A stretch of DNA of 42,916 nt from Deltaproteobacteria bacterium (GCA_021786815.1 JAJYMR010000234.1:1-42916); one strand, 5' to 3'. Positions 5,580-25,210 are shown, counted from the stretch's first letter. Notes: generated by a model from the sequence alone, not told the origin. Numbers and translations: made by a program.

Positions 5580-5682
5580 TCGATGCCCTCCTTGTGAATT
5601 AGCTGGAGGTTCTTAAACGGGAGACCCTGCGGGTTACCTTGCGGGTTCGGCGTGAAAGAAATCGTCCTAGCGTACTCTTTTC

Positions 5683-5710
5683 AGCATAACGTCAATTGAA
5701 GTTGAGTCAA
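5683..5710 (-). promoter_or_regulatory. Candidate sigma70-type promoter for the RRM-protein gene
   Basis: On the minus strand, TTGACT (5710..5705) is followed by a 16-nt spacer and TATGCT (5688..5683). This would give a 5'UTR of roughly 100 nt. Confidence 0.35.
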
Positions 5711-5813
5711 GCGTGGCACATCGGGTGCCTTGAAAGGCAAATCAGCGGCCGTTTGAGCCTGATTCGTTAGGCGCGCGCTTCAGAGGGCCTAGTTGCACGT
5801 CGGCGCCGTTCGC

Positions 5814-6506: not shown

Positions 6507-6541
6507 CGCTTCAGTGCGCAGAGAGCCGAAGCTCGCTGAAG

Positions 6542-6562
6542 TAGACCAATAAATAGACCAAT
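6542..6562. promoter_or_regulatory. Direct repeat TAGACCAAT x2 (12-nt period), candidate GntR operator
   Basis: TAGACCAAT occurs at 6542..6550 and 6554..6562, about 36 nt upstream of the gntR start. ACCAAT/ATTGGT resembles half-sites of FadR-subfamily GntR boxes. Confidence 0.35.
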
Positions 6563-6600
6563 TTCAAGCATATGGCCATACGACTCGGCGAGAAATCTCG

Positions 6601-6629
6601 TTGACATGCCGAACGTTGCGAGCCATCAT
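6601..6629 (+). promoter_or_regulatory. Candidate sigma70-type promoter for the RND pump operon
   Basis: TTGACA (6601..6606), a 17-nt spacer, then CATCAT (6624..6629). A perfect TATAAT also occurs at 6732..6737 but has a poor -35 element. Confidence 0.3.
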
Positions 6630-6655
6630 TCTTGTTCGAAGGTCATCAGGACTAC

Positions 6656-6668
6656 AATTGGTTCACCA
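6656..6668. promoter_or_regulatory. Palindromic GntR-type box AATTGGT-TC-ACCA
   Basis: TGGT-TC-ACCA is an inverted repeat at 6659..6668, just downstream of the candidate pump promoter. It fits the generic GntR GT-Nx-AC operator architecture. Confidence 0.3.
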
Positions 6669-6838
6669 CCTTTTCGATGATATTTGCCGCCCCGGCCCGC
6701 GAAGATGGGTAACCGTTTCGCCGGGTCCGCGTATAATTGAGGTTCGAGGTTCCGCGGCATAGCCACGGCCGAATCCGCGCCAGCATGGAGGCCACCGGTT
6801 GCTTCGCCGTCATGTGAACGGCGAGAGGTATTCATCCC

Positions 6839-9800: not shown

Positions 9801-10087
9801 GCTACACTCCGGTCGCCGCGGCAATCGAGGCCGCCCGGATCCGCCTGCGTCCGATCATCATGACCGCGCTTGCGATGATCCTGGGGATGCTGCCGATGGC
9901 ATTGTCGCTTGGCGCGGGTTCGGAGCAGAACGCGCCGCTCGGACGCGCGGTCATCGGAGGGCTTGTGTTCGCGACCCTGATGACGCTGTTTGTCGTGCCC
10001 GCGGTCTATTCGATCTTCGGCCGCGACGTGAGAGGCAAACGTGAACGCGACGCTGAAATCGAAGCAATCACGCTGCCCGGCGCCTGA
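6839..10087 (+). CDS. RND multidrug/hydrophobe efflux transporter (AcrB/HAE1-like)
   Basis: 1082 aa with an RND N-terminus (RRPLSVAVMALLMLVLG..NVDIFPSIDLPVV). The TM4 region reads GIALAVGMLVDDATVEVENI, and the protein shows the 12-TM layout with two periplasmic loops. Confidence 0.93.
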   Translation: MMWLVRLALRRPLSVAVMALLMLVLGALSFELMNVDIFPSIDLPVVMVVWSYPGLSAIDMERRMVIISERAYSTTVNGMEHIESESINGLGIMKIYFQPGTSIGAAIAQINAVSETILTILPRGTEPPQIISYNAANVPVAQLNIYSDTLSGAQLFDYGLNFIRVQLFTIPGFSTPAPLGGVGRNVMVNLNPAAMYANGLSPQDVGNAIAQQVVVIPSGTAKMGNYEYNIDLNMSPENVPDFNRIPIKTVNGTPVFLGDVAPVSDTHQPQTNVVRINGKLATYLMVIKHASASTLTVVDAVRARIPEILAIAPKGLKAALAFDQSKFVRAALWDVVQEAVTAAILVALMVLVFLGSPRSMLIVITSIPLSILTAFVGLKLAGQTINTMTLGGIALAVGMLVDDATVEVENIHRNHAMGKPLLVAILDGARQIATPTLVGTLAICIVFFPVVLLSGVAKFLFTPLALAVVFAMLTSYLLSRTLVTTMARYLLPETPEVAPGHSLWGRFVAGFERGFERVRERYRSALSSFIAHRAFTLTCVSLMIVVSASLVLVVGEDFFPAVDAGMMRLHVRAPTGTRIERTEWLVANIDREIRKIIPPGELEGISDNIGLPVSYDLAFYQTDSIGPQDADILIQLKPEHRPTAMYQTRIREMLRRKFPNVEGYFQAADIIGQVLNFGLPAAIDAQVSGNDLASDYAIAARLKALMARIPGITDLRIAEPLDYPAFKVDVDRAKALQLGLTETQVASSLLTSLSGNVLLQPAFWLDPKNGVNYDVISQTPQHIVDSVGSLANTPLSTPGTTTGTDAAGATGTTGATGIAGASGPSGQPQLLGNVASISHTLDPAVVEHYTVQRVIDVDAAVSGRDLGSASASVQRAINSLGKLPPGTKIVIRGQSQAMRESFRTLGFGIILAIVLVYLLMVANFQSWLEPFIIMMAIPGALAGVLWILVLTGTTINVESLMGAIMAVGVGVANGNLLITFANDLREEGYTPVAAAIEAARIRLRPIIMTALAMILGMLPMALSLGAGSEQNAPLGRAVIGGLVFATLMTLFVVPAVYSIFGRDVRGKRERDAEIEAITLPGA

Positions 10088-10110
10088 CCTCGCACGAGCA
10101 GGAGACTGAG

Positions 10111-11256
10111 ATGCAAGCAACCGACGATCCCAAGGCCTACGAACCCCGGCGTTCCGGCCTGCGCTACGTCATAGGATGGGTGTGCGCGGTGGTGCTGGCT
10201 GCGGCCGCAAGTGGCGGCCTGGTCCTGGCTCGCGAAAGCCGGCTTGCCGGGCAGAGAACGCAACTCGAGCAAAGACTTGCGCTCGGACCGCGCGTTTTGG
10301 TCACGCCCGTCAAGTATTCGCCGCGCGCGCGGGACATCAATCTGCCGGCGAACGTTCGCGGCTATATCGAGACGCCCGTTTACGCGAAGATTGCGGGCTA
10401 TCTCAAGACGATACGGGTCGACAAGGGCGACCGGGCTCGGAAAGGAGAAGTGATCGCCATCCTGGAATCGCCCGAAATCGACAAACAGGTATCAGACGCT
10501 CGCGCAAGTTACTGGCTGCAGAAGGTTACCGATGACCGCAACCAGTCCCTGGTCCGGTCCGGCGTGATTCCGCAGCAAACCGCCGACGACTCGCACGCCG
10601 CGATGCTGCAGGCGCGCGACTCGTACGAGCAGCTGCGCGCGATGCAGGCGTACGAGGTGATCCGGGCGCCCTACGACGGCTTCGTTACGGCGCGCTACGT
10701 CGATCCCGGTGCGCTCATCCCGCAGGTCACTTCGCCTTCAAGCGGCGCCACGCCGATTATCTCGATGGCGACGCTGAGACCAGTGCGCGTTTACGCCGAC
10801 GTGCCGCAGAATCTTGCGCCGTTCATAAAGGATGGCGACCCGGCGGAATTGACCGTCGCCGACTATCCGCGCCGCGTGTTCGAAGGCACCGTCACGCGCC
10901 ATCCCCATGCCCTGGTCACCGATACGCGCACGATGCTGGTCGAGGTCGATCTGCCGAACAAGGACCTGGCGCTGTACCCGGGAATGTACGGGACATTGAA
11001 GCTCAAGGTCTCGGTTCCCGAGGGCGTGCCGATGGTTCCTGACGACGCGCTGGTGTTCCGCAACGGCAAGGTGTACGTGCCCGTGGTGAGGAACGACCGC
11101 CTGTATCTCACCGAAGTGACCCTCGGATACGACAACGGACTCGAGGTCGAGATCAGAAGCGGCATCTCCGGGCACGCCATGGTCGCCATAAACGTCGGGC
11201 AGACGGCGCGTGACGGCGAGCCGGTGCGACCCGTCGTGCTGGCTGCGGAAAGATAA
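10111..11256 (+). CDS. RND efflux periplasmic adaptor (membrane fusion protein, HlyD family)
   Basis: N-terminal TM anchor, then lipoyl and beta-barrel segments (VYAKIAGYLKTIRVDKGDRARKGEVIAILESPE, VIRAPYDGFVTARYVDPGALI). AGGAGA lies upstream of the ATG. Confidence 0.88.
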   Translation: MQATDDPKAYEPRRSGLRYVIGWVCAVVLAAAASGGLVLARESRLAGQRTQLEQRLALGPRVLVTPVKYSPRARDINLPANVRGYIETPVYAKIAGYLKTIRVDKGDRARKGEVIAILESPEIDKQVSDARASYWLQKVTDDRNQSLVRSGVIPQQTADDSHAAMLQARDSYEQLRAMQAYEVIRAPYDGFVTARYVDPGALIPQVTSPSSGATPIISMATLRPVRVYADVPQNLAPFIKDGDPAELTVADYPRRVFEGTVTRHPHALVTDTRTMLVEVDLPNKDLALYPGMYGTLKLKVSVPEGVPMVPDDALVFRNGKVYVPVVRNDRLYLTEVTLGYDNGLEVEIRSGISGHAMVAINVGQTARDGEPVRPVVLAAER

Positions 11257-11609
11257 CCACGAGCACAAGCTCACGCGGGTGCAGGCAATCGCACCCGCCC
11301 CGCCTTCGCCTGGTTCATTACCAGACGCGTCCGTAACAAATGCCACGAAGCCGCAGGCAGTCAGGAAACGTGCGCGCTTTTTGATCTTTCAGGCCGTCAC
11401 CCTTTGGCATTTTATCGCATCCGTGGCAAACTACCGCCGGGTAGATAAAGCCGGTTCGCTGGTTTCGGTTCGGGGCACACTTTCCCTTGACATGGCGTAA
11501 TGAAAGCTGCTGTGTCTGAGGTGCAGCGAAGCAGCTTTCCGCGCGTTCGGGCGTCGTGTGAGCTCCGGCGCTATCGTATCCAGTTAACCCCAGGGGGTTT
11601 TAAAGGCAG

Positions 11610-12398
11610 ATGGAACTCAAAGAGGTAATCGGTCGGCGGCGGACAATCCGCTACTTTCAGCCATGGCGTCCGGTCGAGCGTGAAAAGATCCAGATCATGC
11701 TCGAGGCCGCCCGTCGCGCGTCCTGCGCGGTCAACGCCACTTTTCTGAAGGCTATCGTCGTCGATCGCAATACGCTCGACCAGGCGACAGTTGACGCGAT
11801 GAAGACCCCGGTGTCCGCGCTCAATATCGAGCTCGCCCCGGTTCATATCTACACCTACGTCGATTTCGGCGCGTATGTCGGCGCGCAGGGCCGGCTGAAG
11901 AAGCTGGTCGACGTGGGCGCGCTCAACGCGACGCACGGATGGAGCCACAAGTTCGTTGACGAATTCGTATGGCCCAACATCCTGAAGCCGCTTGCCGAAA
12001 ATCCGAGCCAGGCTTCGGTTGCCGCTTCTGCGGCTTCGGACGCCGGAATCGCGATTTGCCAGGCGATGCTTGCGGGGGTCGACGAAGGGCTCGGCGTTTG
12101 TCTCTCGGCGTTCGTGCACGACGCGATCAAGAAAGTGATCAATCCGCCGGAGCACTGGATGCCGCTGTGGGCTCTGCTGGTCGGATATCCGGCCGAGTCG
12201 TGGGAAGGCGGCGGTCAGCGTCCGCGCCCGCCGATGGAAGAGCAGTTCTTCGAGGGCAAATACGGCAACGGCTTCAAGCCCGATCCGAAGATCACCGAAA
12301 AAATGGTCGAAGCGAAGATGATTCAGGCTGCCGCACCGCTTCCGTGGCGCAAGGACGAGATCAAGGCGCTCGCCCGGATGTTCGGCCTTCCTGAGTGA
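11610..12398 (+). CDS. Nitroreductase-superfamily protein with long C-terminal tail (paralog 2 of 2)
   Basis: Nearly colinear with 113..919. The first ~125 residues are mostly identical, and the PLPWRKDEIKALARMFGLPE tail is the same. Confidence 0.85.
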   Translation: MELKEVIGRRRTIRYFQPWRPVEREKIQIMLEAARRASCAVNATFLKAIVVDRNTLDQATVDAMKTPVSALNIELAPVHIYTYVDFGAYVGAQGRLKKLVDVGALNATHGWSHKFVDEFVWPNILKPLAENPSQASVAASAASDAGIAICQAMLAGVDEGLGVCLSAFVHDAIKKVINPPEHWMPLWALLVGYPAESWEGGGQRPRPPMEEQFFEGKYGNGFKPDPKITEKMVEAKMIQAAAPLPWRKDEIKALARMFGLPE

Positions 12399-12412
12399 GC
12401 GAAATCAATCCC

Positions 12413-12452
12413 TTCGAGGCGGCGGCTTCAACCGCCGCCTCGAAATTTGTTT
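12413..12452 (+). terminator. Rho-independent terminator
   Basis: TTCGAGGCGGCGG-CTTCAA-CCGCCGCCTCGAA forms a perfect 13-bp stem followed by ATTTGTTT, 15 nt after the stop of 11610..12398. Confidence 0.8.
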
Positions 12453-12470
12453 ACCCTCCGCAGTTTATCT

Positions 12471-12833
12471 ATGGCGAAACCTGACAAACCGCTCGAAAGT
12501 TACGCGTCAGTCCAGACCTGGTTCAAAAGCCTGCAAGAGCAGTCCGGCATCGATAACCCGGCCGCCGATCCTTCCCGTCTGCAAATCCTCGGGCAGTTCT
12601 GCGAATATGCCGAACTCGATCCCGACGAGGCGGTTGCGGCGTGCCTTCTCATCAAGGAAGGCCGCGATACCAAGATCAGCATCAAGGGCCGTCGCCGGAT
12701 GGTCGATCTAATCGCCGACTTTCAGGCAAGTGGCGAAGTCTCAGATTCACGGGAGCGCGCGAAGCGCGGCAACACCGTGCGCAGCTTTCTCATCCACAAC
12801 GGCATCCTTCTGCAATCCGGTATGCAGGTATGA
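12471..12833 (+). CDS. Hypothetical protein (120 aa)
   Basis: ORF with protein-like composition. I trimmed the start to ATG 12471 because the track's TTG start at 12447 lies inside the terminator T-tract. No family was recognised. Confidence 0.5.
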   Translation: MAKPDKPLESYASVQTWFKSLQEQSGIDNPAADPSRLQILGQFCEYAELDPDEAVAACLLIKEGRDTKISIKGRRRMVDLIADFQASGEVSDSRERAKRGNTVRSFLIHNGILLQSGMQV

Positions 12834-13029
12834 CCCTGTCTCACCGGCATCGCATTACCGGCCCGCGAATGGCTCGATGGGAGCCGCAGTGATGCTTTTC
12901 GATACAAAGCGTACCTCGTCCGCTGAGCTCACCGCAGCCCTCGGAAAAAATCTCACGGGGGATTCCAATTGCTGCAGGGCCGGGACGGACGGCACGTTCC
13001 GAAGCGCGGAATCGCTTTGAACTGACGCG

Positions 13030-14818: not shown

Positions 14819-15100
14819 ATGAGAATCAGGTCACGCGCCGGTAACTTCAACATGACTATCGAGGACGTCACGGTCGAAAACGGCGAGCTCGTCATGACCG
14901 GAAAGATGGGCGTGTGGTCGGCAAAGACGATGCTCAACGTTGACGAGCTCAAGCAGATGCTCGCAACGATGAAGGTCAGCGCCAGGGTGCTCGATTTCGC
15001 CGCTCTGTTCGCCTTTCGCTACCTGACCAGCCTCGTCGAAGAGGATCGCGCCCGCCATCTGGCTGCCGAAGCCGCGCCGCTGCCCGAACAGAAAATATAA
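14819..15100 (+). CDS. Hypothetical small protein (93 aa)
   Basis: ORF with GAGGGA upstream, tightly spaced between fixX and the next gene. No family was recognised. Confidence 0.5.
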   Translation: MRIRSRAGNFNMTIEDVTVENGELVMTGKMGVWSAKTMLNVDELKQMLATMKVSARVLDFAALFAFRYLTSLVEEDRARHLAAEAAPLPEQKI

Positions 15101-15132
15101 AGCCGGGAAGAGCCCGACGGAGGTGAATAATA

Positions 15133-16488
15133 ATGGCTGATGATATCAAGCTTTCGGAGCTCGAACAGGTCGATGAGGCCTGGAACTTCCCGCTCTTCGA
15201 GGCGATCTTCAAGCGCCGTTCGCGCCGCTTCGGTTTGGGCATGGAGATCCAGGAAGGGCCGAACAAGTTCAAATCGTCTCATGACCCCGTGCCCCTCGAC
15301 GAAGTCGAAGAGGCGATGCTGATTGCGGCGGGCACCGGCGTTACCGGGCTCAACCTGTCGGATATGCCGCATACGCCGCGACCCGACAACCTCGACTCCG
15401 TCCAGAACTGGGACGGGATGTGCAACACGATGGTCGAGCACGTCGGGCGGACTTGGGCGAGCCCGTGCGGCAATCACGGCACCGAACTTTTCTACACCAA
15501 CGACGAAGGCGTGTACCTGATGAAACTGCGCGAGGTACAGCCGGTCAAGCTCTGCGACGTCGAGACCAAGAGCGACCGCGATAAGCTGGTGGACTTCGTG
15601 CGCGCCAACCGCGTCAAGCTCTTCGACGGGCGCCTCGACATCCCGCGCAACACCGGCGCCATCATGTCCTTCAACATGTATAACGCCAACATGCCGGGCA
15701 GCACCCTCTTCATGCCCATCTCGGACGTCACCGAGGAGTTCATTAACGCGATCATGCTGCAGGCCGACCTCGGACAGTACCTGGTCGACGACCGCAACGG
15801 CATGAAGCCCTGCGTCAGCGAGCGATGGATTCGCGAGGGATGGGTCAACACTCCGGTTCCGCTCACGATGTTCGAGACCAACCTGTCGTTGGCGATAACC
15901 GGCGCCGAAAGCGCGTTCATCGGCCATAACATCATGCTCGCGCTCCAGGCGATGGGGCTCGGCGGATGGCTCTACGGCGGGATGACGAGCTTCGTCGTGA
16001 TGGGGGGCACGCCGATGGCGCAGGGACTCGGGTTCCGTTTCGAATCGAATCCCAAGGACCCGAACGCGTTCCCGATGCCGATCGGAATCGACGGCGCTTT
16101 CGAGAGCTTCCGGCCCCCGTATTACAAGGACATGGACGCCGCGGTCGACGCGGTCGTCGCGAAGAAGTTCGGTCCCAACGGCACTTTCAATCCGTTCTCC
16201 AAGAAGCCCACGCCGTACAAGAACCGCGCCGACTTCCTGTCCCATGTGCCGCGCACGCCCGAGCAAACGATTCAGATCTGCAAGGAAAGCTGCCGCTATA
16301 TATGGGACACCTTTGGGACATTCCCTTCGCTGGTCCCCGCGATGCAGCTTTATGTCTATATCCAGGCCCAGCACATCGAGCTTGACTTCTACGACAAGTA
16401 TTACGACGGGCCCGCGTATCTGAAGACTCACAAGCAGCACATGGATAAATGGCATAAGGCCAAGGGCGCGATGAAAAAGGTCGCCTGA
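15133..16488 (+). CDS. Long (451 aa) SagB/ThcOx-like nitroreductase-superfamily protein, paralog A
   Basis: GGAGGTG SD upstream. The motifs are FKRRSRRFG near the N-terminus, SPCGNHGTELFYTNDEGVYLM (compare SagB PSaG..lY...GlY.Y), and HNIMLALQAMGLGGW (compare nitroreductase QN..LAA.alGLG). It shares private motifs with 18610..19995. The 478-aa antisense ORF has junk composition. Confidence 0.72.
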   Translation: MADDIKLSELEQVDEAWNFPLFEAIFKRRSRRFGLGMEIQEGPNKFKSSHDPVPLDEVEEAMLIAAGTGVTGLNLSDMPHTPRPDNLDSVQNWDGMCNTMVEHVGRTWASPCGNHGTELFYTNDEGVYLMKLREVQPVKLCDVETKSDRDKLVDFVRANRVKLFDGRLDIPRNTGAIMSFNMYNANMPGSTLFMPISDVTEEFINAIMLQADLGQYLVDDRNGMKPCVSERWIREGWVNTPVPLTMFETNLSLAITGAESAFIGHNIMLALQAMGLGGWLYGGMTSFVVMGGTPMAQGLGFRFESNPKDPNAFPMPIGIDGAFESFRPPYYKDMDAAVDAVVAKKFGPNGTFNPFSKKPTPYKNRADFLSHVPRTPEQTIQICKESCRYIWDTFGTFPSLVPAMQLYVYIQAQHIELDFYDKYYDGPAYLKTHKQHMDKWHKAKGAMKKVA

Positions 16489-16628
16489 CCGAGAAAATCA
16501 ACCGGAGGCGTGCGGCTCGCATACGCGGGCCGCGTGCGTCCCAAACCGGACCGCCGCGGCTTAGTCTTGTTGCGCGGGGCCCGAACAACCTGGGGTCGTC
16601 TCGATGACCCGCAGAGAGAGCGCTCGTT

Positions 16629-17600
16629 ATGCGCATCCTTGAAGAAGGCAAAGGCGAATATCTAAAGGTCGATCCCGACAGTTATCGGGCATATGTGCGG
16701 GATCACAAGCCGCACGAGATGGTTTCCAAGCTGATGTCCGAGAAGGAGGCGGTCGAGAAGCTCGTCCACGACGGCGACTACTTCGCGTACGACTGCAACT
16801 ACTTCCAGCGCGGACCGGCCTCGCTGATTCGCGAGATAATCCGCCAACGCAAGAAGAACCTGTGGCTGTGCGGAAAGTTCACCTACGTCGCGTGTGCGAT
16901 GCTGGTCGAGGCGGGATGCGCTGACCGTATCGACATCGGCTTCATCGGCTTCGGTCCCTGGATCGCCCGAGCGGTGCGCGAGAACCGCTGCAAGATCTAC
17001 GAGTACTCCAACGCGATCATGACGCTTCGGCTCAAGGCGGGCGCCATGGGGTTGCCGTTTCTGCCGGCGCGCAGCTTCGGCGGGACCGACGGATTCCCGC
17101 ACTCAGGCTGCAAGATAGTCGAGGATCCCTACAGCAAACAGCCGGTTCTGCTCGCTCCCGCACTCAATCCCGACGTCGCCATCATCCATGTCCATCAGGC
17201 CGACGAGTACGGCAACGCGCGCGTCTTCGGCACCGGTATCACGCATCAGGAATGCGCGCTTGCTTCGAAGCGCGTGATCGTTTCGGCCGAGGAAATCGTC
17301 TCGACCGACGAGATCCGGCGCGATCCCGGCCGCACCTCGATACCGCATTTCGCGGTTGACGCGGTGGTCCACGCTCCTTTCGGCGCCTATCCGGGAACGG
17401 TGCAGGGCTACTACGCATCGGATCCCGAGGGCGTGGTCGAAGCGATGGGCGCGATGTTCCGCGGCGATTTCAAGGCTTATCTTGAGAAACACGTCTACTC
17501 GGTGAACTCTCACGAGGAATATCTCGCCAAGGTGGTCGGCACGAAGAAGATGGCCGAGATTCGCCGCCGCGAAACGATCAAGGAGGGCTACGGCGCATGA
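16629..17600 (+). CDS. Family I CoA-transferase subunit A (glutaconate CoA-transferase GctA-like)
   Basis: The size (323 aa) and sequence (MSEKEAVEKLVHDGDYFAY, LWLCGKF, YEYSNAIMTLRLKAGAMGLPFLP) are typical of GctA-type alpha subunits. It overlaps the B subunit by ATGA. Confidence 0.82.
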   Translation: MRILEEGKGEYLKVDPDSYRAYVRDHKPHEMVSKLMSEKEAVEKLVHDGDYFAYDCNYFQRGPASLIREIIRQRKKNLWLCGKFTYVACAMLVEAGCADRIDIGFIGFGPWIARAVRENRCKIYEYSNAIMTLRLKAGAMGLPFLPARSFGGTDGFPHSGCKIVEDPYSKQPVLLAPALNPDVAIIHVHQADEYGNARVFGTGITHQECALASKRVIVSAEEIVSTDEIRRDPGRTSIPHFAVDAVVHAPFGAYPGTVQGYYASDPEGVVEAMGAMFRGDFKAYLEKHVYSVNSHEEYLAKVVGTKKMAEIRRRETIKEGYGA

Positions 17601-18433
17601 GCACACCGGCAGCCAATTTCAGCGAACGTGAATTCGTAATCGTTCAGGTCTCCCGTCTCGTCGAGGACAAGAAGATTTACTGGGTCGGCGGCGGCGGCGA
17701 GCCGCTCTCCTCGGTCCTGCTCGCCAAGCGAACCAACATGCCCAATCTTCAGTACCTTACCGAAGACGGCGTGGTAGGCCCCGAAGCCGTTGTTCCGTTC
17801 GATCCGCTGATGACCATGATCAGCTCGCGCGCCAACTACCGCGCGTTGCAGTGGAGCACGATGAACTACGCGGCCGACTTGGCCCATCTCGGCTACGTGG
17901 ACTACGGCATCCTGGCCACGCTCCAGGTCGATCGCTACGGCAACGTCAATTCGACGGTGGTCGGCAAGTACGAGGGCGGCGAAGGACGACGTTTCGGCGG
18001 GCCAGGCGGAGCCGACAGTATCGCGGCACTCGCGTGGCGCACGATCCTCGTGACCGATCAGCAGAAGCGCAAATTCGTCGACCGGGTCGATTTCATCTCC
18101 TCGCCCGGCTTTCTTGACGGTCCCGGCTCGCGCGAGAAGCACGGATTGCCGCCAGGCACCGGACCATGGCGCGTTTACACGCCGTGGGCGATGTTCGGTT
18201 ACGACACCGATTGCCAGTTGATGCTCCAGGCGATCGCTCCGTATGTGACCGTCGAGCAGGTGCTGGACGAGATGAGCTTCAAGCCAAAGATGGCGAAGAA
18301 AATAGAAATTCTCGAACCGCCGACCGAAGAGGAGTTGCTCATCCTGCGCACGCAGATAGACGTAGGGGGCCAGGTCACCGATCGCGGCCGATGGGTCGAA
18401 CTACGCGACGGTAAATATTGCTTCGCGGGATAA
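17597..18433 (+). CDS. Family I CoA-transferase subunit B (GctB-like), catalytic Glu retained
   Basis: VDRYGNVNSTVVGKY, RFGGPGGADSIA and VDFISSPGFLDGPGSREKHGLP match my recollection of Acidaminococcus GctB. The Glu in YLTEDGVV aligns with the catalytic Glu of IIVESG. Confidence 0.86.
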   Translation: MSTPAANFSEREFVIVQVSRLVEDKKIYWVGGGGEPLSSVLLAKRTNMPNLQYLTEDGVVGPEAVVPFDPLMTMISSRANYRALQWSTMNYAADLAHLGYVDYGILATLQVDRYGNVNSTVVGKYEGGEGRRFGGPGGADSIAALAWRTILVTDQQKRKFVDRVDFISSPGFLDGPGSREKHGLPPGTGPWRVYTPWAMFGYDTDCQLMLQAIAPYVTVEQVLDEMSFKPKMAKKIEILEPPTEEELLILRTQIDVGGQVTDRGRWVELRDGKYCFAG

Positions 18434-18609
18434 TTACTCCGTCGGCCGCCCGCGCGGATGGCCAGGTTGGGTGCTCATGGCGTGGGCGAATTTGATTTTC
18501 GTTTGATCTTTCAACGCGGGCCGAACGATACTACGGCCCAGAGAAGCGGAATCCGCTCTGCGCCGCGCGCTCAACGGCTGCCGCAGGCAAGATTCAGGAG
18601 CTTGGTGCA

Positions 18610-19995
18610 ATGAACGATCAAGATAGGCTCAAGTGGGCATTCCAACAGTCTCCATCTTTCTTCGATCTGCTGACGACGATTCGTAGCCGGCGCGTCGGGC
18701 GCGGATACCGTATCGATTCGGGTGAGGAAATAAAGCATCCCGTGACCGGCCGCACGATGAAGCAGGGCCTCGGGCCGATGAAATTCGTCTCCAAAAAGGA
18801 GCCGAAGCCATTGACCGAACTCGAAGAGGCGCTGATCTGCTGGTCCGCGTGCGGTCCCAACGGCCTGTGCGCGTGGGACATCTCGCTCGACGGTGGATTC
18901 CACGAACTGACATGGATCGCGGGCCGCACCGTTCCGTCACCGGGAAACTCGCTCGCCACGGATCTGCTTGTGATCAACGACCGCGGCGCCTTTATCTACA
19001 AGCCCACCAAGGAGCGCTCCGGCCCGATCGAAATCCAATCCGAGGCCGATTACGACAAGGTACTCCAGTGGTACCAGGACGGGCTTATCCAGATCTTGGA
19101 TGAGCGGCCCGATGTCGATTGGGCGTTGCGCGCACCCGGCGCCCCGCACGCGACCCTGATGGGTCCGTATCAGTTCAACATGAACATGCCCGGCTCGACC
19201 TGGTTCATTCCGCTGAGCGACTCCGCCTGGCTACAGTCCGCTCTCATCAATTTCATGGACGTGTGGCACTTCTACATGATCGACGAGTGGAACGGCGGAC
19301 GTCCGGCGGGGCTGGAGAAATGGATCCGTGAGGGGATGCTCGAATTGCCGAGCACGATCGCCGGCGAGGAGCAACTCATCTTCCAGGTCGAGCAGTTTCC
19401 GATCGGATGCATGGTGCAGAACATCCGCCTTGCGACTGAGGCGATGGGACTCGGAGCGTGGGTCTTCTGCGGATTCAATCCCGATGTGCTGATGGGCGCG
19501 ATGCCGGAAATCTCGCGCGGCCTCGGCTTCCATATCGAGGCGCCGAATCCCAAGGCTCCTGTTTCGACCGGCCAGATCAAGATCTTCGGAATCGAGGGCG
19601 TCAAGGAAGCGACCTATGTGCCCTCGCCGCGGTACAAGAGCGCCGAGCAACTGGTCAAGGCCTGGTACGACGAGAAGTACGGCGAAGGCGGCGTGATGCA
19701 TCGCGGCGACAACAATTATCTGCGCAAGGTCGGCGCGCCGTGGAAGTCGAACAAGGTCGATGAGATACTCGCTCATCCCAAAACGCGACCTGCGGAATGG
19801 GTGCAGGAAGCGCTCATCGCGTATATCGACTACTGCGTGAAGAATTTCGGCCAGTGGCCGGTTACTTACAACCCGATGCAGGCGCACTTCGGCGCGGTGA
19901 TTCACAACGTGGACGAGGCGTTCTACGACACTTACTACAAGGAGGGTTATATCAACGACCGAATCCGCAATCGGTCGAAGATATGGCATGACTAA
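18610..19995 (+). CDS. Long (461 aa) SagB/ThcOx-like nitroreductase-superfamily protein, paralog B
   Basis: AGGAG SD upstream. The motifs are IRSRRVGRGY, VPSPGNSLATDLLVINDRGAFIYKP and QNIRLATEAMGLGAW. Motifs shared with 15133..16488 are NMPGST.F.P.SD, E(R/K)WIREG and GLGF..E..NPK.P. Confidence 0.72.
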   Translation: MNDQDRLKWAFQQSPSFFDLLTTIRSRRVGRGYRIDSGEEIKHPVTGRTMKQGLGPMKFVSKKEPKPLTELEEALICWSACGPNGLCAWDISLDGGFHELTWIAGRTVPSPGNSLATDLLVINDRGAFIYKPTKERSGPIEIQSEADYDKVLQWYQDGLIQILDERPDVDWALRAPGAPHATLMGPYQFNMNMPGSTWFIPLSDSAWLQSALINFMDVWHFYMIDEWNGGRPAGLEKWIREGMLELPSTIAGEEQLIFQVEQFPIGCMVQNIRLATEAMGLGAWVFCGFNPDVLMGAMPEISRGLGFHIEAPNPKAPVSTGQIKIFGIEGVKEATYVPSPRYKSAEQLVKAWYDEKYGEGGVMHRGDNNYLRKVGAPWKSNKVDEILAHPKTRPAEWVQEALIAYIDYCVKNFGQWPVTYNPMQAHFGAVIHNVDEAFYDTYYKEGYINDRIRNRSKIWHD

Positions 19996-20007: not shown

Positions 20008-20526
20008 ATGCAGTCGTATACCTGGTTACGTATACTGCGGCTTATTCACATTTACTCCGCGATCGTCCTGGTAGGTTCGATCATATTCAACACGATGATC
20101 CTGATGCCGGCGCTGCGCCGCATCCCGCCCGCCCAGTCCGCGGTCGTCTCGCAGAAAATCGGCGGGGGACTGATGAAACTGGGCGGGTCGGCCATCGTGT
20201 TGCTCGGAGTGACGGGTGCTTTGCGCCTGTGGCTGCTCGGGGAACTGCCGTACATCTTTTCGCACGAAGTGTTGGCGCTCGCGCATCTGCGATGGATTCT
20301 CCTGATGATGTGCTCGTGGTTCGGGCTTCTCGTCACCGGCACGCTTTCGGGAATCTGGTACAACACGGTTCTCACGAAGAAACTTCCGTACTCCGCCGGC
20401 CTGCGCGAGCTCGAAGAGCGCCGCGCTTCCCAGGAGAAAGTCGCCACGTGGCAGGAACGTTTGGCGTACTTCAACCTTGCGCTGGCGTTGCTCGCGGCGC
20501 TGGGTGGAATCCTCGCCTCGTTCTAG
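20008..20526 (+). CDS. Small integral membrane protein, about 4 TM helices (CopD/DUF-like)
   Basis: Four hydrophobic stretches (IHIYSAIVLVGSIIFNTMIL, LGGSAIVLLGVTGAL, WILLMMCSWFGLLVTGTL, FNLALALLAALGGILA). The gene starts 12 nt after the preceding gene. Confidence 0.7.
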   Translation: MQSYTWLRILRLIHIYSAIVLVGSIIFNTMILMPALRRIPPAQSAVVSQKIGGGLMKLGGSAIVLLGVTGALRLWLLGELPYIFSHEVLALAHLRWILLMMCSWFGLLVTGTLSGIWYNTVLTKKLPYSAGLRELEERRASQEKVATWQERLAYFNLALALLAALGGILASF

Positions 20527-20533
20527 GGTTTTG

Positions 20534-20569
20534 CTCGGCGAAAGACAGACACTCGGCGAAAAACAGACA
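20534..20569. repeat. Tandem 18-nt direct repeat (2 units, 17/18 identical)
   Basis: CTCGGCGAAAGACAGACA (20534..20551) is followed immediately by CTCGGCGAAAAACAGACA (20552..20569), 8 nt after the stop at 20526. Confidence 0.9.
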
Positions 20570-20582
20570 ACCTAACCCTCAG

Positions 20583-20703
20583 TCCCTTCCCTCAAGGGAA
20601 GGGAAGTAGGACAAAGAAAAATGGGCTGCTCGTCTTCGACGAGTTACGCAAAGGTTTCCTTCAGGGAAACCTCGCAAAAGCTGGTTCCCCTTCCCTTGGG
20701 GAA
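20583..20703. other. Cluster of four short stem-loops in an AT-richer spacer
   Basis: Hairpin 20583..20604 is TCCCTTCCCT-CA-AGGGAAGGGA. Hairpin 20629..20643 is CTCGTC-TTC-GACGAG. Hairpin 20652..20672 is AGGTTTCC-TTCAG-GGAAACCT. Hairpin 20685..20703 is TTCCCC-TTCCCTT-GGGGAA. The first and last share a CCCTTCCCT core. Confidence 0.6.
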
Positions 20704-20771
20704 AAGGTCAGGGGATAGGTACCAAGCCCGAATAATGTTGCGAATCTCCAACTCGCCTGGCTAGCGGTTTT

Positions 20772-21635
20772 GTGACGATGGCTTTACCGCATCTCGCGGA
20801 TTATCCATTCTACCGCGAGCGCCTCGGACCGGACGGGCGTCCCGCGCCGTGGGCGCTCGCCGATCTCGAAAGCTACGCCGCCACGCATCCGGGCGATCCC
20901 TTCGCGGGGCGCGTTATCGGCGCGGTGACGCCAAAGGTCGCGCTTCAGATGGAAGCCACCGGCGAGCCGCCGATATGGACCGCGTTGAACCCGCCCGAAC
21001 TCGATCGATGGGCCGAGGTGGTCGGCGGGATGTGGTCACGCTGGGGTGCAGTCGCCAGCGAGACGATCGCCTTCTTCGACTACGGTTCGAGCCCGATGGT
21101 TCTGCTCGCTTCAGGCGGCTACGTGGGCTATCTGCGGCGCGGCGCGGCGGAGCGTCTCGGTATCTTCGCGGTGTGCAATGACGGCGTTGCCACGATGGCG
21201 CCGCGGATGGTCGGTATCGTGGAGACCGTGAAGCCCACGATGCTCGTGCTCAGGCGCGATCTGGTCGCTCCGTTCGTCTCGGCGCTGGAGACCGCCGGTG
21301 TTTCGCTTGCGCAGACGGTTCGATGGGCCGCAGTGAGCGAAGTTGAAGGCACGGTAACTCGGGAACAGGCCCAAGCCGCGGCCTCGAGCCTCGGCGTGCG
21401 CGTGTTGCGAATCCTGCGATGCGACGCCGCCTTTATGCTCGCGGGCGAATGTTCGGAGTGCGGGTGCTTTCATCTGGACCGGCGCTACCGGGCCGAGCAG
21501 TTGCCCTCGGGCGAGGTGGCGATAACCACGACTTTCGCGGTGACCTGTCCTTCGGTGCGCTATAACCTGGGGGCGGCGCGTCTGGCGGGCGCGGGATGCC
21601 CGCTTGAGCCGCGCGCGCAGCGAATCGAATGCTGA
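20772..21635 (+). CDS. PaaK/F390-synthetase-like N-terminal domain protein with degenerate P-loop (probable pseudo-enzyme)
   Basis: ADYPFYRERLG aligns to the PaaK N-terminus, MEATGEPP sits where SSGTTGKP is expected, and ECSECGCFHLD aligns to EC...G.H. The adenylation C-terminal domain is absent. The start is GTG 20772, with ATG 20778 as an alternative. Confidence 0.62.
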   Translation: MTMALPHLADYPFYRERLGPDGRPAPWALADLESYAATHPGDPFAGRVIGAVTPKVALQMEATGEPPIWTALNPPELDRWAEVVGGMWSRWGAVASETIAFFDYGSSPMVLLASGGYVGYLRRGAAERLGIFAVCNDGVATMAPRMVGIVETVKPTMLVLRRDLVAPFVSALETAGVSLAQTVRWAAVSEVEGTVTREQAQAAASSLGVRVLRILRCDAAFMLAGECSECGCFHLDRRYRAEQLPSGEVAITTTFAVTCPSVRYNLGAARLAGAGCPLEPRAQRIEC

Positions 21636-22948
21636 ACACGGAACCGTTCGACGATATCGATCGGCTATCGCCAGCGGAACTGGAGCGATGGTGGGTGCGG
21701 CGCCTGCGCGCGGTGTTTACCGTCGCGGCCCGCGAGCTTCCTTTCTATCGCGAACGGTTCGCCGCCGCGGGTTTCGATCCGGCGAGCTTCCGCGCGCTGG
21801 ACGACCTCAACCGGATGCCGATATTCGCCAAGGCCGACCTGCTTGCGGCGCAGCGCAAGACCCAAAGCCAGCGCCTGGGAATCGAGCGCGGCGCGGACGA
21901 GCCCGGCTCGCGCACGACGTTCAGTTTGAGTTCCGGCACGGCGGGTACGACCTTTATCACGCACACGGCGCGATGGCGCCGGGCGCAAGGGATGTCCTCT
22001 AGCCGGGCGCATTGGTGGGCGGGGCTTCGCCCGGGCGGGACGCTGGTGATGTCGGCGCCGGCGTGGCACAGCTACGCCGCGATTCAGCCGTTCATCGCGA
22101 TGCGTTTCGGGATGCGGTGCGTGGTGGTTTCGGGAACCTACCTGCCGCGGTTCGCGGACCGAGTCGTTGACGCGCTCGTGCACTTCAGGCCGCGCTTTGT
22201 CACGATGTTCCTGCCGATGGTATTCTCGATTCTGGACGCGGCGCGCCGCCGCGGTATCGCCGGCAACGAACTCTTCGCCGGAGTCGGAAGTCTCGTGGTT
22301 ACCGGAGCGGCAATCACACCCGGGATGCGTGCGCATCTGAAGGCTCTGACCGGGGTCGAACGTGTCGCGGAGATCGCGGGAACGAGCGAAAATCTTCTCG
22401 CCGTTGACTGCGCGTATGCCGAGGGACTTCACGTCGTGTCCGACACCTGCCACGCACAGGTAATCGACCGCAAAACCGGTCTGCCCGTCGCCGACGGCGA
22501 GCGCGGCTCGGTTGTCCATTGCGCGCTGATCCCGTATGGCTCGCTCTATCTGCGTTACGACAGCGGTGACGTCGGCGTGATCAATCACACGCCGTGCGCA
22601 TGCGGGCTTCCCTCGCCGCGCATCAAGCTGCTCGGACGATGGGAAGATTGCTTCAGTATCGGCGCGCGCGCGCTTTTGCCCTACGACGTTCAGCTTGCGC
22701 TCGAAGAGGAAGTGCCGGAACTGAAAGGCGCGGCGTGCGTCATCACGCGCGAAGGCCTCGCCGAAGGGAAACTCCGGCTTCTGCTTATTGAGCCTCACGG
22801 AGCGTCGGCGGTCTCGCTCCTTGACCACGCGCGCTCCGCCCTGTCGCGCCGCTTCGACGTTCCGGTCGAGATAACGCCGGTCAAGGATTTGCCGCTTCGC
22901 TTCAAAGGCGTGCCGCCGATCCTTTCCGAGCGGGAGGCGGAGCTATGA
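21629..22948 (+). CDS. Phenylacetate-CoA-ligase (PaaK)/coenzyme F390 synthetase-family adenylate-forming enzyme, divergent
   Basis: LPFYRERFAAAGFDPASFRALDDLNRMPIFAKADL is the PaaK N-terminus and SSGTAGT is the P-loop. Further motifs are AGTSE, LRYDSGD, PCACGLPSPRIKLLGRWED, and a C-terminal domain is present. It overlaps the previous gene by 7 nt. Confidence 0.8.
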   Translation: MLNTEPFDDIDRLSPAELERWWVRRLRAVFTVAARELPFYRERFAAAGFDPASFRALDDLNRMPIFAKADLLAAQRKTQSQRLGIERGADEPGSRTTFSLSSGTAGTTFITHTARWRRAQGMSSSRAHWWAGLRPGGTLVMSAPAWHSYAAIQPFIAMRFGMRCVVVSGTYLPRFADRVVDALVHFRPRFVTMFLPMVFSILDAARRRGIAGNELFAGVGSLVVTGAAITPGMRAHLKALTGVERVAEIAGTSENLLAVDCAYAEGLHVVSDTCHAQVIDRKTGLPVADGERGSVVHCALIPYGSLYLRYDSGDVGVINHTPCACGLPSPRIKLLGRWEDCFSIGARALLPYDVQLALEEEVPELKGAACVITREGLAEGKLRLLLIEPHGASAVSLLDHARSALSRRFDVPVEITPVKDLPLRFKGVPPILSEREAEL

Positions 22949-24123
22949 GCAAGGGTGCGCTTGGCCTGCTGGCGGCATACTGGCCCGAGGATACGCCGCG
23001 TTACGCGCATATCCCGCTGAAAACGATCGGCGATATCACGATCTACGAGCAGGCCACCGCTGCGGCTGACCGCGCCGCGCTGGTGAGCGCGTCGGGCACG
23101 CTTACCTACGGCGTGTTGGCCGAGCGCGCGCGCCACTTAGCCGACTGCCTGCGCGCCAGGGTGAAGCGCGCGTCGCGCGTGGCAATCGTCGAGCCCGACG
23201 CGGCCCGGATGCTGATAGCGGCTTTCGGAGCGTTCGATGCCGAGGTGCTCATCTTCCTGAGCGAGGTGACGCCGTCCGAGCAGGCGCTTCAGGCATTCCA
23301 GCCCGAACTGATTATCGCTCCGCAGGCGATTCCGGGCGCGCCGGCTCCGGTCGTCAGCTTTGACGAAGTCGAAGGCTCGGAGGGGAAATCGCGCGAAGGG
23401 CGTCCCGACACGCGCACGCCGCTGATGGTTCTGCCCACGCCCGACGGCCGCGGCGAGGTCCAGCACAGCCATCGAAGCCTGGTTGCGAGCGCGGTGTCTG
23501 TCGGGCGCTTTTACATGCTCGCCGAGGAAATCACGCTCCTGATGCTCGAGCCGCCGACGCGATGGTACACGCTCGCGATGATGCTTGGAGCGCTGCAGCG
23601 CGGAGCGACGCTGCTCGCGGGATGGGAGGAAAATCCGCCGGCGCCGCGCGAGTGGGTCGATTATGCGGCGTGCGGATGGGACCGGGCGGGACGGATGCTC
23701 GACGAGGCGGGCACGGCGGGCCTGCCGAAGCGAATCGCGGCGGGGCTTATCGCCGCAATCGAAGGACCGTTCAGCGCCTCACGCCGGATGCGGCTTGCGC
23801 GAAGGCTCGGATGCGACGTCCTGACGCTGTTCGGGCGAAGCGATCTTGGTCCCGTGCTTGCGGCCCATCCGAGCTGGTACCTCAGCGACGCCGCCGGAAT
23901 CCCGATGCCGAACGTCGATCTGCGCCCGCTCAATCCTGCCGACGGTTCGCCGCTCAATATCGGATGGGAAGTCGTGGAGCGCGCCGAAATCGGCGTCAAA
24001 TCACCGCTTGCGCCGGCCGGAGGGATCGCTGTCCAGGGATGGCTGCGCACGGGCATCATGGCCGAAGTGGATCCGACCGGCTTCTATTTCCTGCACTCGC
24101 CCACGCCGCTTCGCGCGGTGTAG
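22945..24123 (+). CDS. ANL-superfamily (acyl-CoA synthetase-like) N-terminal domain only, catalytic motifs degenerate
   Basis: The N-terminus resembles acyl-CoA synthetases (DRAALVSASGTLTYGVLAERARHLADCL..RVAIV). The P-loop region reads LPTPDGRGEVQHSHRSL instead of YTSGTTGxPKGV..tH. YGxTE is replaced by FGRSD and TGD by TGI. The protein stops at the hinge, and it has an ATGA overlap with the upstream gene. Confidence 0.68.
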   Translation: MSKGALGLLAAYWPEDTPRYAHIPLKTIGDITIYEQATAAADRAALVSASGTLTYGVLAERARHLADCLRARVKRASRVAIVEPDAARMLIAAFGAFDAEVLIFLSEVTPSEQALQAFQPELIIAPQAIPGAPAPVVSFDEVEGSEGKSREGRPDTRTPLMVLPTPDGRGEVQHSHRSLVASAVSVGRFYMLAEEITLLMLEPPTRWYTLAMMLGALQRGATLLAGWEENPPAPREWVDYAACGWDRAGRMLDEAGTAGLPKRIAAGLIAAIEGPFSASRRMRLARRLGCDVLTLFGRSDLGPVLAAHPSWYLSDAAGIPMPNVDLRPLNPADGSPLNIGWEVVERAEIGVKSPLAPAGGIAVQGWLRTGIMAEVDPTGFYFLHSPTPLRAV

Positions 24124-24130
24124 ATCGAAT

Positions 24131-25210
24131 CTAGTTGCCGCTTACGGTTCTAAAGCCGCCGCTTTCGAATCGCGCGATCGCTTTTCCGACTCTGTTTACG
24201 AACGAGTCGCGTCCGTCTTCGGCCGTGATACGCTCGGCCGCGTAATCGTCGCAGTAACGGCAGTCGCGGCATCCCGCGCGGCAATCGTGCTTTTTCCTGA
24301 AAAACTCGACGAAGCCGTCGAGCGCGCGGTTTGGAATCCGCACCGGAAGGCGACCGTACGGTTCCAGATGGTCGAAACCGAGGACGAGGTCGTTCAGGTC
24401 GCCATCGTAACGGCGGCGCGCGTAAGCCTCGGTCCCGCGCTCGACCCACGCGCGGTCCATCTCGCGTCCGGCGAGCTTGAACTCGTCGATGCCGATTTCC
24501 TCGTAGAGCGCCTGGTCTTCCGGCCTTATCCACGGCGACTTGAGCATCAGCGCCGGCTCGCGCGCCTTCTCCTGCGTGCACCACATCAGCGGATAATCCA
24601 CGTAGGTGCCGAGTTCCAGGCTCTCGTTCGAGTGCGAGACGAGGTTGATGTGATACTGGCGAATTGGGCAGTGCAGCAGGCATCCCACGTTCGCCAGCAG
24701 CACGAGCTTCGTGCGCACGCGTTTTCGGATTTGTGCGAGCAACGGGAAATCGCGGTTGATGTATTCGGGCAGGTAAAGAGTGTCGGCGCCCTGGCCCTCG
24801 AAAAATTGCGCCTTGTCCACGCTATCGATCGCGGCCGAAGTGGAGACGGCGATCCTGAGATGTGGAAAGCGCCGATGGGCGAAGGCGACGAAGTAGGGAT
24901 TGGAAAGCACCACGCCTTCGACGCCGATATCCGCGAGCCATCCCAGGCGCTCGACCAGCCATCGCTGCCCCTCCGAGGTAAACTCGCGGTTTCCAAGGCA
25001 CGCGACGTTCAGGCAATAGAAAAAAGCGACACCCTTGCGGCGCGCGTAATCGACGTACTGCGCAAAGTCGTCGGCCTTCGGCTGCGGGAGCCATTGGTTC
25101 GCCCTGAGGCCGACGTCCCCGGCGACCGAGCCATACAGATGGCTTATTGGATAGCCGGCGACGGTATCGAGGAAGTCCGTGTTGAATATCGCCGGTACGA
25201 CGAGTTTCAT
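24131..25210 (-). CDS. Peptidase-U32-family protein (family also includes O2-independent hydroxylases)
   Basis: The MKLVVPAIFNTDFLDTV...LYGS N-terminus, VAFFYCLNVAC, VLLANVGCLLHCP, and the TIM-barrel-like alternation are typical of short U32 proteins. The C-terminus carries CRAGCRDCRYC. GGGAGGAG SD upstream. Confidence 0.78.
   Translation of the reverse strand: MKLVVPAIFNTDFLDTVAGYPISHLYGSVAGDVGLRANQWLPQPKADDFAQYVDYARRKGVAFFYCLNVACLGNREFTSEGQRWLVERLGWLADIGVEGVVLSNPYFVAFAHRRFPHLRIAVSTSAAIDSVDKAQFFEGQGADTLYLPEYINRDFPLLAQIRKRVRTKLVLLANVGCLLHCPIRQYHINLVSHSNESLELGTYVDYPLMWCTQEKAREPALMLKSPWIRPEDQALYEEIGIDEFKLAGREMDRAWVERGTEAYARRRYDGDLNDLVLGFDHLEPYGRLPVRIPNRALDGFVEFFRKKHDCRAGCRDCRYCDDYAAERITAEDGRDSFVNRVGKAIARFESGGFRTVSGN

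Follow-up and report, generated by a model that had tools for sequence, protein, structure and literature searches.

ANL enzymes are textbook single-chain, two-domain catalysts. A stretch of 42,916 nucleotides (nt) from a "Deltaproteobacteria bacterium" (GCA_021786815.1, JAJYMR010000234.1:1-42916), hereafter called the window, raises the question of what three proteins of this adenylate-forming superfamily, T1, T2 and T3, might be doing together when they are encoded by overlapping genes and only one of them seems equipped for catalysis. A first-pass annotation of the sequence had described the trio as one probable enzyme with two pseudo-enzyme paralogs and could match it to no described system; likewise, we found no description in the literature in which one live ligase is joined by a CopD-like membrane protein and by two dead N-domains that differ from each other. 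That division of the trio is borne out by our analysis: T2 has the catalytic set, and T1 and T3, both of which stop at the hinge, appear unable to adenylate. The answer that we favor, to which we give a little less than an even chance, is that T1, T2 and T3 form, along with a small membrane protein, TM4, a membrane-associated heteromeric adenylate-forming complex with one catalytic subunit, which is coupled to a neighboring oxidoreductase. The four genes are as follows (lengths in amino acids, aa):

T1, 20772..21635, + strand: 287 aa; PaaK-type N-terminal domain only, with no P-loop
T2, 21629..22948, + strand: 439 aa; full-length PaaK-like adenylate-forming enzyme, the only member with catalytic motifs
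T3, 22945..24123, + strand: 392 aa; classical ANL A-core (N-terminal domain) only, its P-loop and A7 Asp lost
TM4, 20008..20526, + strand: membrane protein of 172 aa, CopD/DUF2269-like and with four hydrophobic segments

The three open reading frames (ORFs) of the trio all lie on the + strand, T1 overlapping T2 by 7 nt and T2 overlapping T3 by 4 nt, exactly as first annotated, and the G+C content at third codon positions in these frames is 77-79%, the same as in the adjoining genes. The motifs that had been picked out earlier are all present, namely SSGTAGT in T2, MEATGEPP and ECSECGC in T1, and PTPDGRGEV, FGRSD and TGI in T3; proper alignment gives no intact catalytic motifs in either T1 or T3. 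The true start of T1 is likely the ATG at 20778, because the identical protein in the genome collection has 285 aa.

A four-gene cassette conserved in two gene orders

A scan of the genome collection recovered 30 loci with this cassette, nearly all from Binatia or "Deltaproteobacteria bacterium" metagenome-assembled genomes (MAGs), and a metagenome scan with remote T1-like proteins added 61, for a total of 91; all relatives are MAG or metagenome sequences, and their taxon labels are given as in the records. T2 and T3 follow T1 in every one of the 53 loci with enough downstream DNA, of the 75 loci informative for TM4, 74 have it upstream of T1, and the order TM4-T1-T2-T3 holds in 56 of 56. This synteny persists down to identities of 30-40% for T1, 27-38% for T2 and 24-35% for T3, and the 4- and 7-nt overlaps are widespread among the relatives. 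Since the trio is strictly conserved together, the possibility allowed for in the first-pass annotation, that the three genes are never found together elsewhere, does not hold. Its three-gene unit, in contrast, has to be enlarged to four genes, TM4 being equally constant.

Pairwise dN/dS ratios are 0.12-0.19 for T1, 0.10-0.21 for T2 and 0.07-0.28 for T3, and all three genes are under purifying selection. The loss of the catalytic motifs and of the C-terminal domain in T1 and T3 might be taken to mean that they are decaying, functionless remnants of duplicated ligase genes. We leave this account next to no chance, as it is refuted by the selection and conservation data: the dN/dS of T1 and T3 is comparable to that of T2, over 50 loci, from lineages with as little as 24-40% identity, show them as intact frames of conserved length, and both retain many invariant residues.

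A further and divergent version of the cassette is encoded elsewhere in the genome from which the window comes, on the minus strand of contig C399 (locus L094) at 5258-12898. Here the order is an ethylbenzene dehydrogenase (EBDH)-type molybdenum (Mo) enzyme alpha subunit (951 aa), T3b, T1b, T2b, a U32-family protein (U32b), TM4b, MoaA, an MqnC-like radical S-adenosylmethionine (rSAM) protein and an NirJ/AhbD-like rSAM/SPASM protein. The same permuted, type-2 order is seen in L098, from another genus, in L101 and L102, from other Binatia MAGs, and in L099, from a MAG labeled Gammaproteobacteria. Both the window's type-1 order and the type-2 order (T3-T1-T2-U32-TM4) keep the same four families together, and the cassette is a mobile module found in two gene orders beside varied oxidoreductases and U32 proteins.

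Some long frames among the relatives have the appearance of fusions. The 723-aa T1-T2 ORF of L029 (9995-12166) owes its length to a frameshift near the T1 end and is probably an assembly error, and out-of-frame extension, in DNA of high GC content, accounts for the long ORFs of L063, L079 and L055. P0175 (610 aa) combines a T1-like segment, matching positions 55-221 of the T1 profile A1, with a full T2-like protein, and is an unverified case, either fusion or artefact. We also rejected a phylum-wide census with another T1 profile, A4, which scored in 257 of 301 genomes: this profile cross-matches ordinary full-length PaaK at ~1e-18, and the tally therefore does not measure the cassette. For that census, only hits below ~1e-27 with short frames are regarded as T1-like.

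T2, a full-length PaaK-like enzyme

T2 matches PF00501 at 1.8e-9 and, among the NCBIfam models, those of F390 synthetase, PaaK, DVU_1553, FlxY and BagE at 1e-12 to 1e-22, with the F390 synthetase model at the top (6.1e-22). These matches fall far under all the curated cutoffs (64-78 bits versus 459-700), with 64.2 bits against 646.3 and 77.1 against 700 for the PaaK equivalogs TIGR02155 and NF041878, and 77.9 against 458.7 for the coenzyme F390 synthetase model TIGR03335. Judged by these scores, T2 is PaaK-like, not PaaK, and belongs to no named equivalog. A profile of 21 T2 orthologs, compared with solved structures, aligns almost end to end with PaaK-family ligases (E 2e-29 to 1e-19), the best relatives being the 2-hydroxyisobutyryl-CoA ligase HCL (6hdw; 2e-29) and BT_0428 (4r1l; 9e-27), followed by PaaK1/2 (2y27, 2y4o) and AjiA1/NatL2. 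The end-to-end alignment and the sub-cutoff F390 and PaaK scores agree well with the earlier description of the middle gene as coding for a full-length but divergent PaaK/F390-synthetase-like enzyme.

With the acid-CoA ligases of this family and its ester-forming members NatL2, AjiA1 and ClxA, T2 has in common the core of the P-loop, the Asp of A7, the Arg of the hinge and a C-terminal lid domain bearing its Lys. In all type-1 lineages it keeps the P-loop core S102-G103-T104-x-G106, D314 in RYxxxD (A7), the hinge residue R337, and K426 (A10) in a C-terminal (F/W)KG. This retention of the catalytic motifs across the type-1 lineages makes T2 look catalytically competent.

Given its top match, one may ask whether T2 adenylylates a hydroxyl, as F390 synthetase does on F420, and thereby activates, for elimination or substitution, an alcohol or phenol that a neighboring Mo or U32 hydroxylase has made. 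Indeed, hydroxylases of the EBDH and U32 types consistently adjoin the cassette, and some clusters encode a separate CoA-activating enzyme. Nevertheless, the F390 score is no better than those of the PaaK models, the best solved relatives of T2 are all acid-CoA or acid-ester ligases, and the neighborhoods examined hold no F420 biosynthesis genes, bar a CofH/MqnC-family rSAM that scores best as MqnC. We regard such a hydroxyl-directed activity as highly improbable.

T1, a PaaK-type N-domain without a P-loop

T1 has no Pfam match. Its family profile recovers only PaaK chains from the PDB, in weak but colinear alignments (E 0.096 and 0.37), and sets the LQxEATxEPP of T1 opposite the PaaK P-loop SSGTTGKPTV. 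The AlphaFold2 (AF2) model of T1 has a predicted local distance difference test score (pLDDT) of 90.1 and a predicted template modeling score of 0.88; when it is used in a Foldseek search, ranks 1-37 all go to the PaaK family (E 1.9e-15 to 4e-11, TMq 0.70-0.77), with EhpF following weakly at ranks 38-41 (TMq 0.52-0.57). Remote T1-like proteins of 338-346 aa match PaaK models at 1e-27 to 1e-36 over positions ~5-320 of 427 and appear to bridge T1 to PaaK. The C-terminal end of T1 coincides with the expected hinge position. Thus, the view of T1 as a PaaK-like N-domain only, first put forward from the window's sequence, is supported by the AF2 model and its top 37 matches. At the P-loop site the T1 family has QxEATxEP, which clearly does not conform to the A3 phosphate-binding loop, and this loss is family-wide.

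The T1-like family is rare, with 96 clusters among 1.84 billion. Its members span 80-346 aa, apart from a pair of multi-domain ORFs (610 and 940 aa), and none of the 96 clusters has a member of PaaK length (~430 aa). Stand-alone ANL or PaaK-like N-domains without a lid are represented, like T1, by EhpF (3hgu/3l2k) and the DVU_1553 family (NF045666, a model of 331 positions); we know of no account in which either is one of a trio that includes a full-length ligase and is joined by a membrane protein. T1 itself gives no match to NF045666 at E values up to 1 (the cutoff of the model being 300 bits), and the remote T1-like proteins match it at 1e-10 to 1e-26, with 25-91 bits, under the same cutoff. 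The PaaK family offers a further point of comparison: its known members are reportedly homodimers of identical full-length chains, as described with the structures of PaaK1/2. The N-domain fold of these ligases is common to T1, whereas the cassette has a partner-like paralog without the lid and the ATP site, plus a non-PaaK ANL core and a membrane protein.

Conservation was computed over ~40 diverse sequences. The residues of T1 conserved in at least 90% of them are R47, Q59, W88, D103, Y104, G124-A126, C135-N136-D137-G138, R145, E192, R216, D218, C227, H234, Y239 and C276. Around the relic pocket lie ~25 near-invariant, mostly polar residues, which suggest that T1 probably still binds something; as far as the motifs go, T1 and T3 are "dead" with regard to adenylation only. 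The Cys-rich ECSECGC segment of T1, which had earlier been singled out, is present but not exotic. It aligns with C261...H268 and the CxCG (C323, C325) of T2 and with the same positions in BT_0428, and the simplest reading would be an inherited structural metal site, a Cys/His site common to T2 and BT_0428.

T3, a classical ANL core without a P-loop

T3 matches PF00501 at 3e-17, mainly via its first 100-160 residues, and Pfam detects no AMP-binding_C domain in it. Its AF2 model (pLDDT 77.6) matches the classical ANL A-cores of NpsA, MenE, PchD and FadD10 at ~1e-16 and covers N-subdomain-only ANL constructs end to end. The P-loop takes the form PDGxGE in Binatia and is wholly degenerate in the other lineages; the A7 Asp is missing everywhere, with T/S-G-I/L or another sequence for TGD; and the A5 motif is GR(S/N)DLGP in Binatia and YGxxE(T/C)GP-like in remote lineages. 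The protein stops at the hinge, without a lid domain. Hence, what had been noted for the window's T3, an ANL N-domain with a degenerate phosphate loop, no TGD and no lid, extends to the whole family. In profile searches T3 belongs to a discrete clade of 68 clusters (371-417 aa, PF00501 only, E at most 1e-82), beyond which come two shorter fragments (1e-56 and 1e-24) and then canonical ANLs of 494-542 aa with AMP-binding_C at 1e-18 or above. The gap between this N-only clade and the canonical enzymes amounts to more than 60 orders of E-value. By their profiles and models, then, T1 and T3 are truncated paralogs of different ANL subtypes, with neither canonical ATP binding nor a lid, and both are still degenerate in relatives with identities as low as ~25%.

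The T3 residues conserved at the 90% level or above are M1, K3, W13-P14, R19, Y20, P24, W207, G297, G302, W311, G318, D325, W341, K352, D376 and G379. Few parts of the protein are as well conserved as its N-terminal tail, MSKGALGLLAAYWPEDTPRYAH, and its loop 299-324; residues 1-22 (window 22945-23010) conform to M-S/G-K ... Y/F-W-P ... R-Y ... P in every lineage, type 2 included. Despite this conservation, the AF2 model of T3 alone has a pLDDT below 50 at residues 1-21 and 299-324. We read these segments, conserved yet without confident structure when T3 is folded alone, as probably depending on a partner or ligand for their structure. Together with the obligate synteny, they suggest a possible hetero-oligomer.

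It is also conceivable, if rather unlikely, that T1, T2 and T3 are separate sequential enzymes, with T1 and/or T3 performing new chemistry on the ANL scaffold, for example by accepting or transferring the acyl group of T2 in an AuaE- or LuxE-like manner, with Cys135 of T1 or Lys3 of T3 as the acceptor. The near-invariant residues of T1, including C135-N-D-G, R145, E192, R216, D218, H234 and Y239, would be in keeping with such a role, as would the A5-like YGxxE(T/C)GP of remote T3s and the K3, W13-P14 and R19 of all T3s. Moreover, N-domain-only ANLs are known, EhpF being among the fold matches and the DVU_1553 model having the corresponding short length. In aurachin biosynthesis, AuaE and AuaEII are reportedly two ANL paralogs acting in series, of which one does not adenylate and handles the activated acyl group only. 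AuaE is said to be full-length and soluble and to serve a polyketide carrier protein, to which it transfers from CoA; at the cassette, in contrast, both degenerate partners are truncated, and no carrier protein or reductase partner is encoded nearby. Further, C135 is replaced by Gly in the type-2 member of L099, and the strict 1:1:1 synteny and translational coupling suit a complex at least as well as a series of enzymes.

The membrane protein TM4 and the spacer

The assignment of TM4 to a known family is weak: it matches DUF2269 with an E-value of 0.012 and 16.2 bits, against a gathering score of 28, and the precomputed CopD hits on its homologs are unmarked in L099 and weak in L097, L101 and L102. 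At or above the 90% level it conserves H14, an I39-P40-P41 motif, M100 and W104. Between TM4 and T1 lies a spacer:

TM4-T1 spacer, 20527..20771, + strand: 245 nt

In most relatives the matches to TM4 and T1 are ~60-75 nt apart. An RNA element or riboswitch in the spacer was considered and rejected, as no Rfam family reaches its gathering score anywhere in the window and the length of the spacer is not conserved; nor does 20527-20771 hold a promoter- or terminator-like site above chance. In L097, of the L055 lineage, T1 is preceded by a tandem pair of TM4 paralogs (176 and 175 aa; 6259-7649), with a Rieske/cytochrome b/cytochrome c complex encoded divergently upstream and genes for a GntR protein and Mo-enzyme beta, delta and alpha subunits downstream.

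Genomic neighborhood of the cassette

Two genes of the window flank the cassette directly:

NTRL_B, 18610..19995, + strand: 461-aa nitroreductase/SagB-like flavoprotein, the oxidoreductase directly upstream of the cassette in this lineage
U32-family protein, 24131..25210, - strand: convergent on T3, often a partner of the cassette

In every lineage examined, the gene directly upstream of the cassette and co-directional with it codes for the catalytic subunit of an oxidoreductase. A nitroreductase-like flavoprotein occupies this place in nearly all Binatia loci (18610-19995 in the window) and in L063, L074, L078, L084 and L090; NTRL_B is a 30%-identity paralog of the product of 15133-16488 and has no Pfam or NCBIfam match. 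A CrtO/CrtI-like enzyme dependent on flavin adenine dinucleotide (FAD) is found there in L072, L073 and L079, and the alpha subunit of a type II dimethyl sulfoxide (DMSO) reductase (TIGR03479 E 1e-231; EbdA 3e-159) in L081, L088 and L100, where the alpha gene overlaps the start of TM4. EBDH-type Mo enzymes adjoin the cassette in at least four lineages (TIGR03479 E 7e-213 to 1e-231). In L101/L102 (4269-9998) and L098, the DNA ahead of the type-2 cassette codes for two to three tandem EBDH-type alpha paralogs, which share one beta subunit; neither a NarJ-like delta nor an EB_dh gamma gene was seen in these clusters.

The commonest facultative partner of the cassette is the U32 protein. That of the window scores 38.7 bits on PF01136, above the cutoff of 22.4, and 17.9 bits against UbiU, for which the cutoff is 440; the type-2 copy scores 30.4 bits against TrhP, with a cutoff of 534. 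A U32 gene adjoins the cassette in ~20 Binatia loci, where it is convergent on T3, and in L081-83, L086, L088 and L100. In L081 and L100 the convergent U32 gene is also coupled to those for the Mo-enzyme delta, beta and gamma subunits, and in the type-2 cassettes U32 lies in-line between T2b and TM4b.

On the strength of this company, the cassette together with U32 and TM4 might be seen as serving a membrane redox cofactor, be it as an accessory or as a biosynthetic module, for instance in the oxygen-independent synthesis or modification of an isoprenoid quinone, with T2 catalyzing one ATP-dependent step and T1 and T3 carrying the lipophilic intermediate, comparable to UbiT/UbiJ beside UbiU/UbiV. 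Prephenate-dependent hydroxylation is the activity proposed for U32 proteins and ascribed to the characterized ones, among them UbiU/UbiV from the anaerobic synthesis of ubiquinone, and members of the family are proposed to need an unidentified electron acceptor (PMC10990095). The in-line position of U32 in type 2 and its coupling to Mo-enzyme genes would fit such a module, as would the genes that follow the type-2 cassette of L099 in the same direction (14878-18684), two of the rSAM+CofH_C and two of the VitK2_biosynth type, which together are futalosine menaquinone genes of the MqnA/C/D/E type. Other pointers are the MqnC-like rSAM (322 bits) and MoaA downstream of the cassette in C399, L101 and L102, a bc-type complex beside the L038/L055 lineage, FixC/FixX in the window, and an O-methyltransferase in L072. 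On the other side, U32 and Mqn genes are missing from the flanks of L038, L072, L078 and L079, the MqnC-like gene is under its NCBIfam cutoff, and quinone genes beside a respiratory Mo enzyme could serve that enzyme, not the cassette. No prenyltransferase was seen in the clusters, and the type-1 context in Binatia is rich in CoA-ester enzymes. The parallel with the oxygen-independent UbiU-UbiV-UbiT system, which pairs U32 proteins with an accessory protein that binds lipid, is also incomplete, in that the cassette has one U32 gene and no SCP2-type UbiT, and the Ubi system has no ANL-type counterpart. We consider a cofactor module unlikely.

A variant of these ideas, which we judge distinctly unlikely, would make the trio and TM4 a hitherto unrecognized, modular accessory machine for oxygen-independent hydroxylases of the U32 and EBDH-type Mo kinds. 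The dead ANL cores would carry a lipophilic quinone or isoprenoid substrate, T2 would spend ATP on activating or extracting it, and TM4 would pass electrons to the quinone pool. Were this true, it would amount to a new way to build a membrane metabolon from pseudo-enzymes, and could supply the missing partner or electron acceptor of uncharacterized U32 subfamilies.

The wider context varies among lineages. In the window it comprises FixC/FixX, the second nitroreductase-like paralog, a CoA-transferase A/B, an SCPx/BbsB-like thiolase and a small nitroreductase; a deep Binatia branch has a canonical ligase and a luciferase-like monooxygenase in place of the CoA-transferase. The neighbors in L072 also include an XDH-family Mo protein and a FAD_binding_2 protein, and those in L078 a CoA-transferase, a small nitroreductase and a CADD/TenA-like protein. 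An alpha-oxidation route, from a ligase via 2-hydroxylation to a thiamine-diphosphate (TPP) lyase, was rejected: the TPP enzymes in L063 and L079 are closest to generic acetolactate-synthase-like proteins, with 2-hydroxyacyl-CoA lyases ranking lower by ~20 and ~14 orders of E-value, respectively.

A proposed adenylate-forming complex

To return to the heteromeric complex that we favor, its parts might work as follows. T2 would adenylate a carboxylate, likely a hydrophobic or an aryl or branched one, with ATP and probably hand it to CoA. T1 would most likely stand in for the second protomer of a PaaK-type dimer, its relic pocket probably binding the substrate or product, and T3 would be a second non-catalytic subunit, using its invariant N-terminal tail to dock. 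TM4, in which the first transmembrane segment has a conserved His and the third a conserved Met, would hold the complex at the membrane and may give the oxidoreductase a route to the quinone pool. Finally, the adjacent oxygen-independent oxidoreductase would oxidise or hydroxylate the acid activated by T2; in the window this oxidoreductase would be the nitroreductase-like flavoprotein and/or U32, and elsewhere a Mo enzyme of the EBDH type or an FAD enzyme resembling CrtO.

The pairing of a ligase with an oxidoreductase has a possible parallel in anaerobic phenylacetate oxidation. There, the pad cluster codes for PadJ, a PaaK-type ligase, and PadBCD, a membrane-bound Mo-Fe-S phenylacetyl-CoA:acceptor oxidoreductase of the DMSO-reductase family, which oxidises the CoA ester independently of oxygen (PMC4453571). 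By analogy, the cassette might follow the same logic, given that it likewise adjoins Mo enzymes in several lineages. There are differences, however: PadJ is a single canonical ligase; the cassette-linked Mo enzymes are of type II and EBDH-like; and the partners in the window are a flavoprotein and U32, not a Mo enzyme. A 2026 paper on a benzene flavoprotein, considered as related work, proved unrelated, and no paper was found that combines U32, PaaK-like ligases and nitroreductases.

Several observations weigh against such a complex or against parts of the scheme. Some clusters encode another CoA-activating enzyme (the CoA-transferase A/B of the window; a canonical ligase of 519-566 aa in L002 and L028), and the trio may therefore not be the entry ligase. 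Genes for beta-oxidation accompany the cassette in Binatia only, the other contexts being pure redox and cofactor clusters. The P-loop of T2, which keeps S-S-G-T-x-G in all lineages, is two residues shorter than that of PaaK and lacks its Lys/Arg-Pro, and T2b of type 2 carries a Gly where the A10 Lys aligns. The near-invariant polar residues around the relic pocket of T1 suggest an independent function for this protein, and none of the fused frames could be verified as a natural fusion that would signal a complex.

The superfamily is familiar; the architecture, antiquity and gene company of the cassette are not. It appears to be ancient and is strictly conserved, with a dedicated membrane protein and one live ligase next to two different paralogs that are lid-less and blind to ATP. 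Should the four proteins indeed form a complex, it would represent a new quaternary design for the ANL superfamily and a clear case of pseudo-enzymes maintained for hundreds of millions of years. The module also keeps company with oxygen-independent oxidising enzymes that have poorly known partners, among them U32 proteins, a family in which most subfamilies are uncharacterized, EBDH-type Mo enzymes and large nitroreductase-fold flavoproteins. Knowledge of its substrate could give access to a block of uncharacterized metabolism, anaerobic or microoxic, in Binatia and other soil lineages that are abundant.

Other genes in the window

At its start (113-3106, minus strand), the window codes for a split acyl-CoA mutase, made up of an MM_CoA_mutase (567 aa) and a separate B12-binding subunit (145 aa), followed by a further nitroreductase-family protein (283 aa). 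L001 likewise encodes a split mutase of similar kind, 5-7 kb upstream of its cassette. The 2-hydroxyisobutyrate pathway, the ligase of which is the best solved relative of T2, also uses a split mutase. Toward the other end, a TspO/MBR family gene (39198-39695; 165 aa) follows that for a CzcA-like RND pump.

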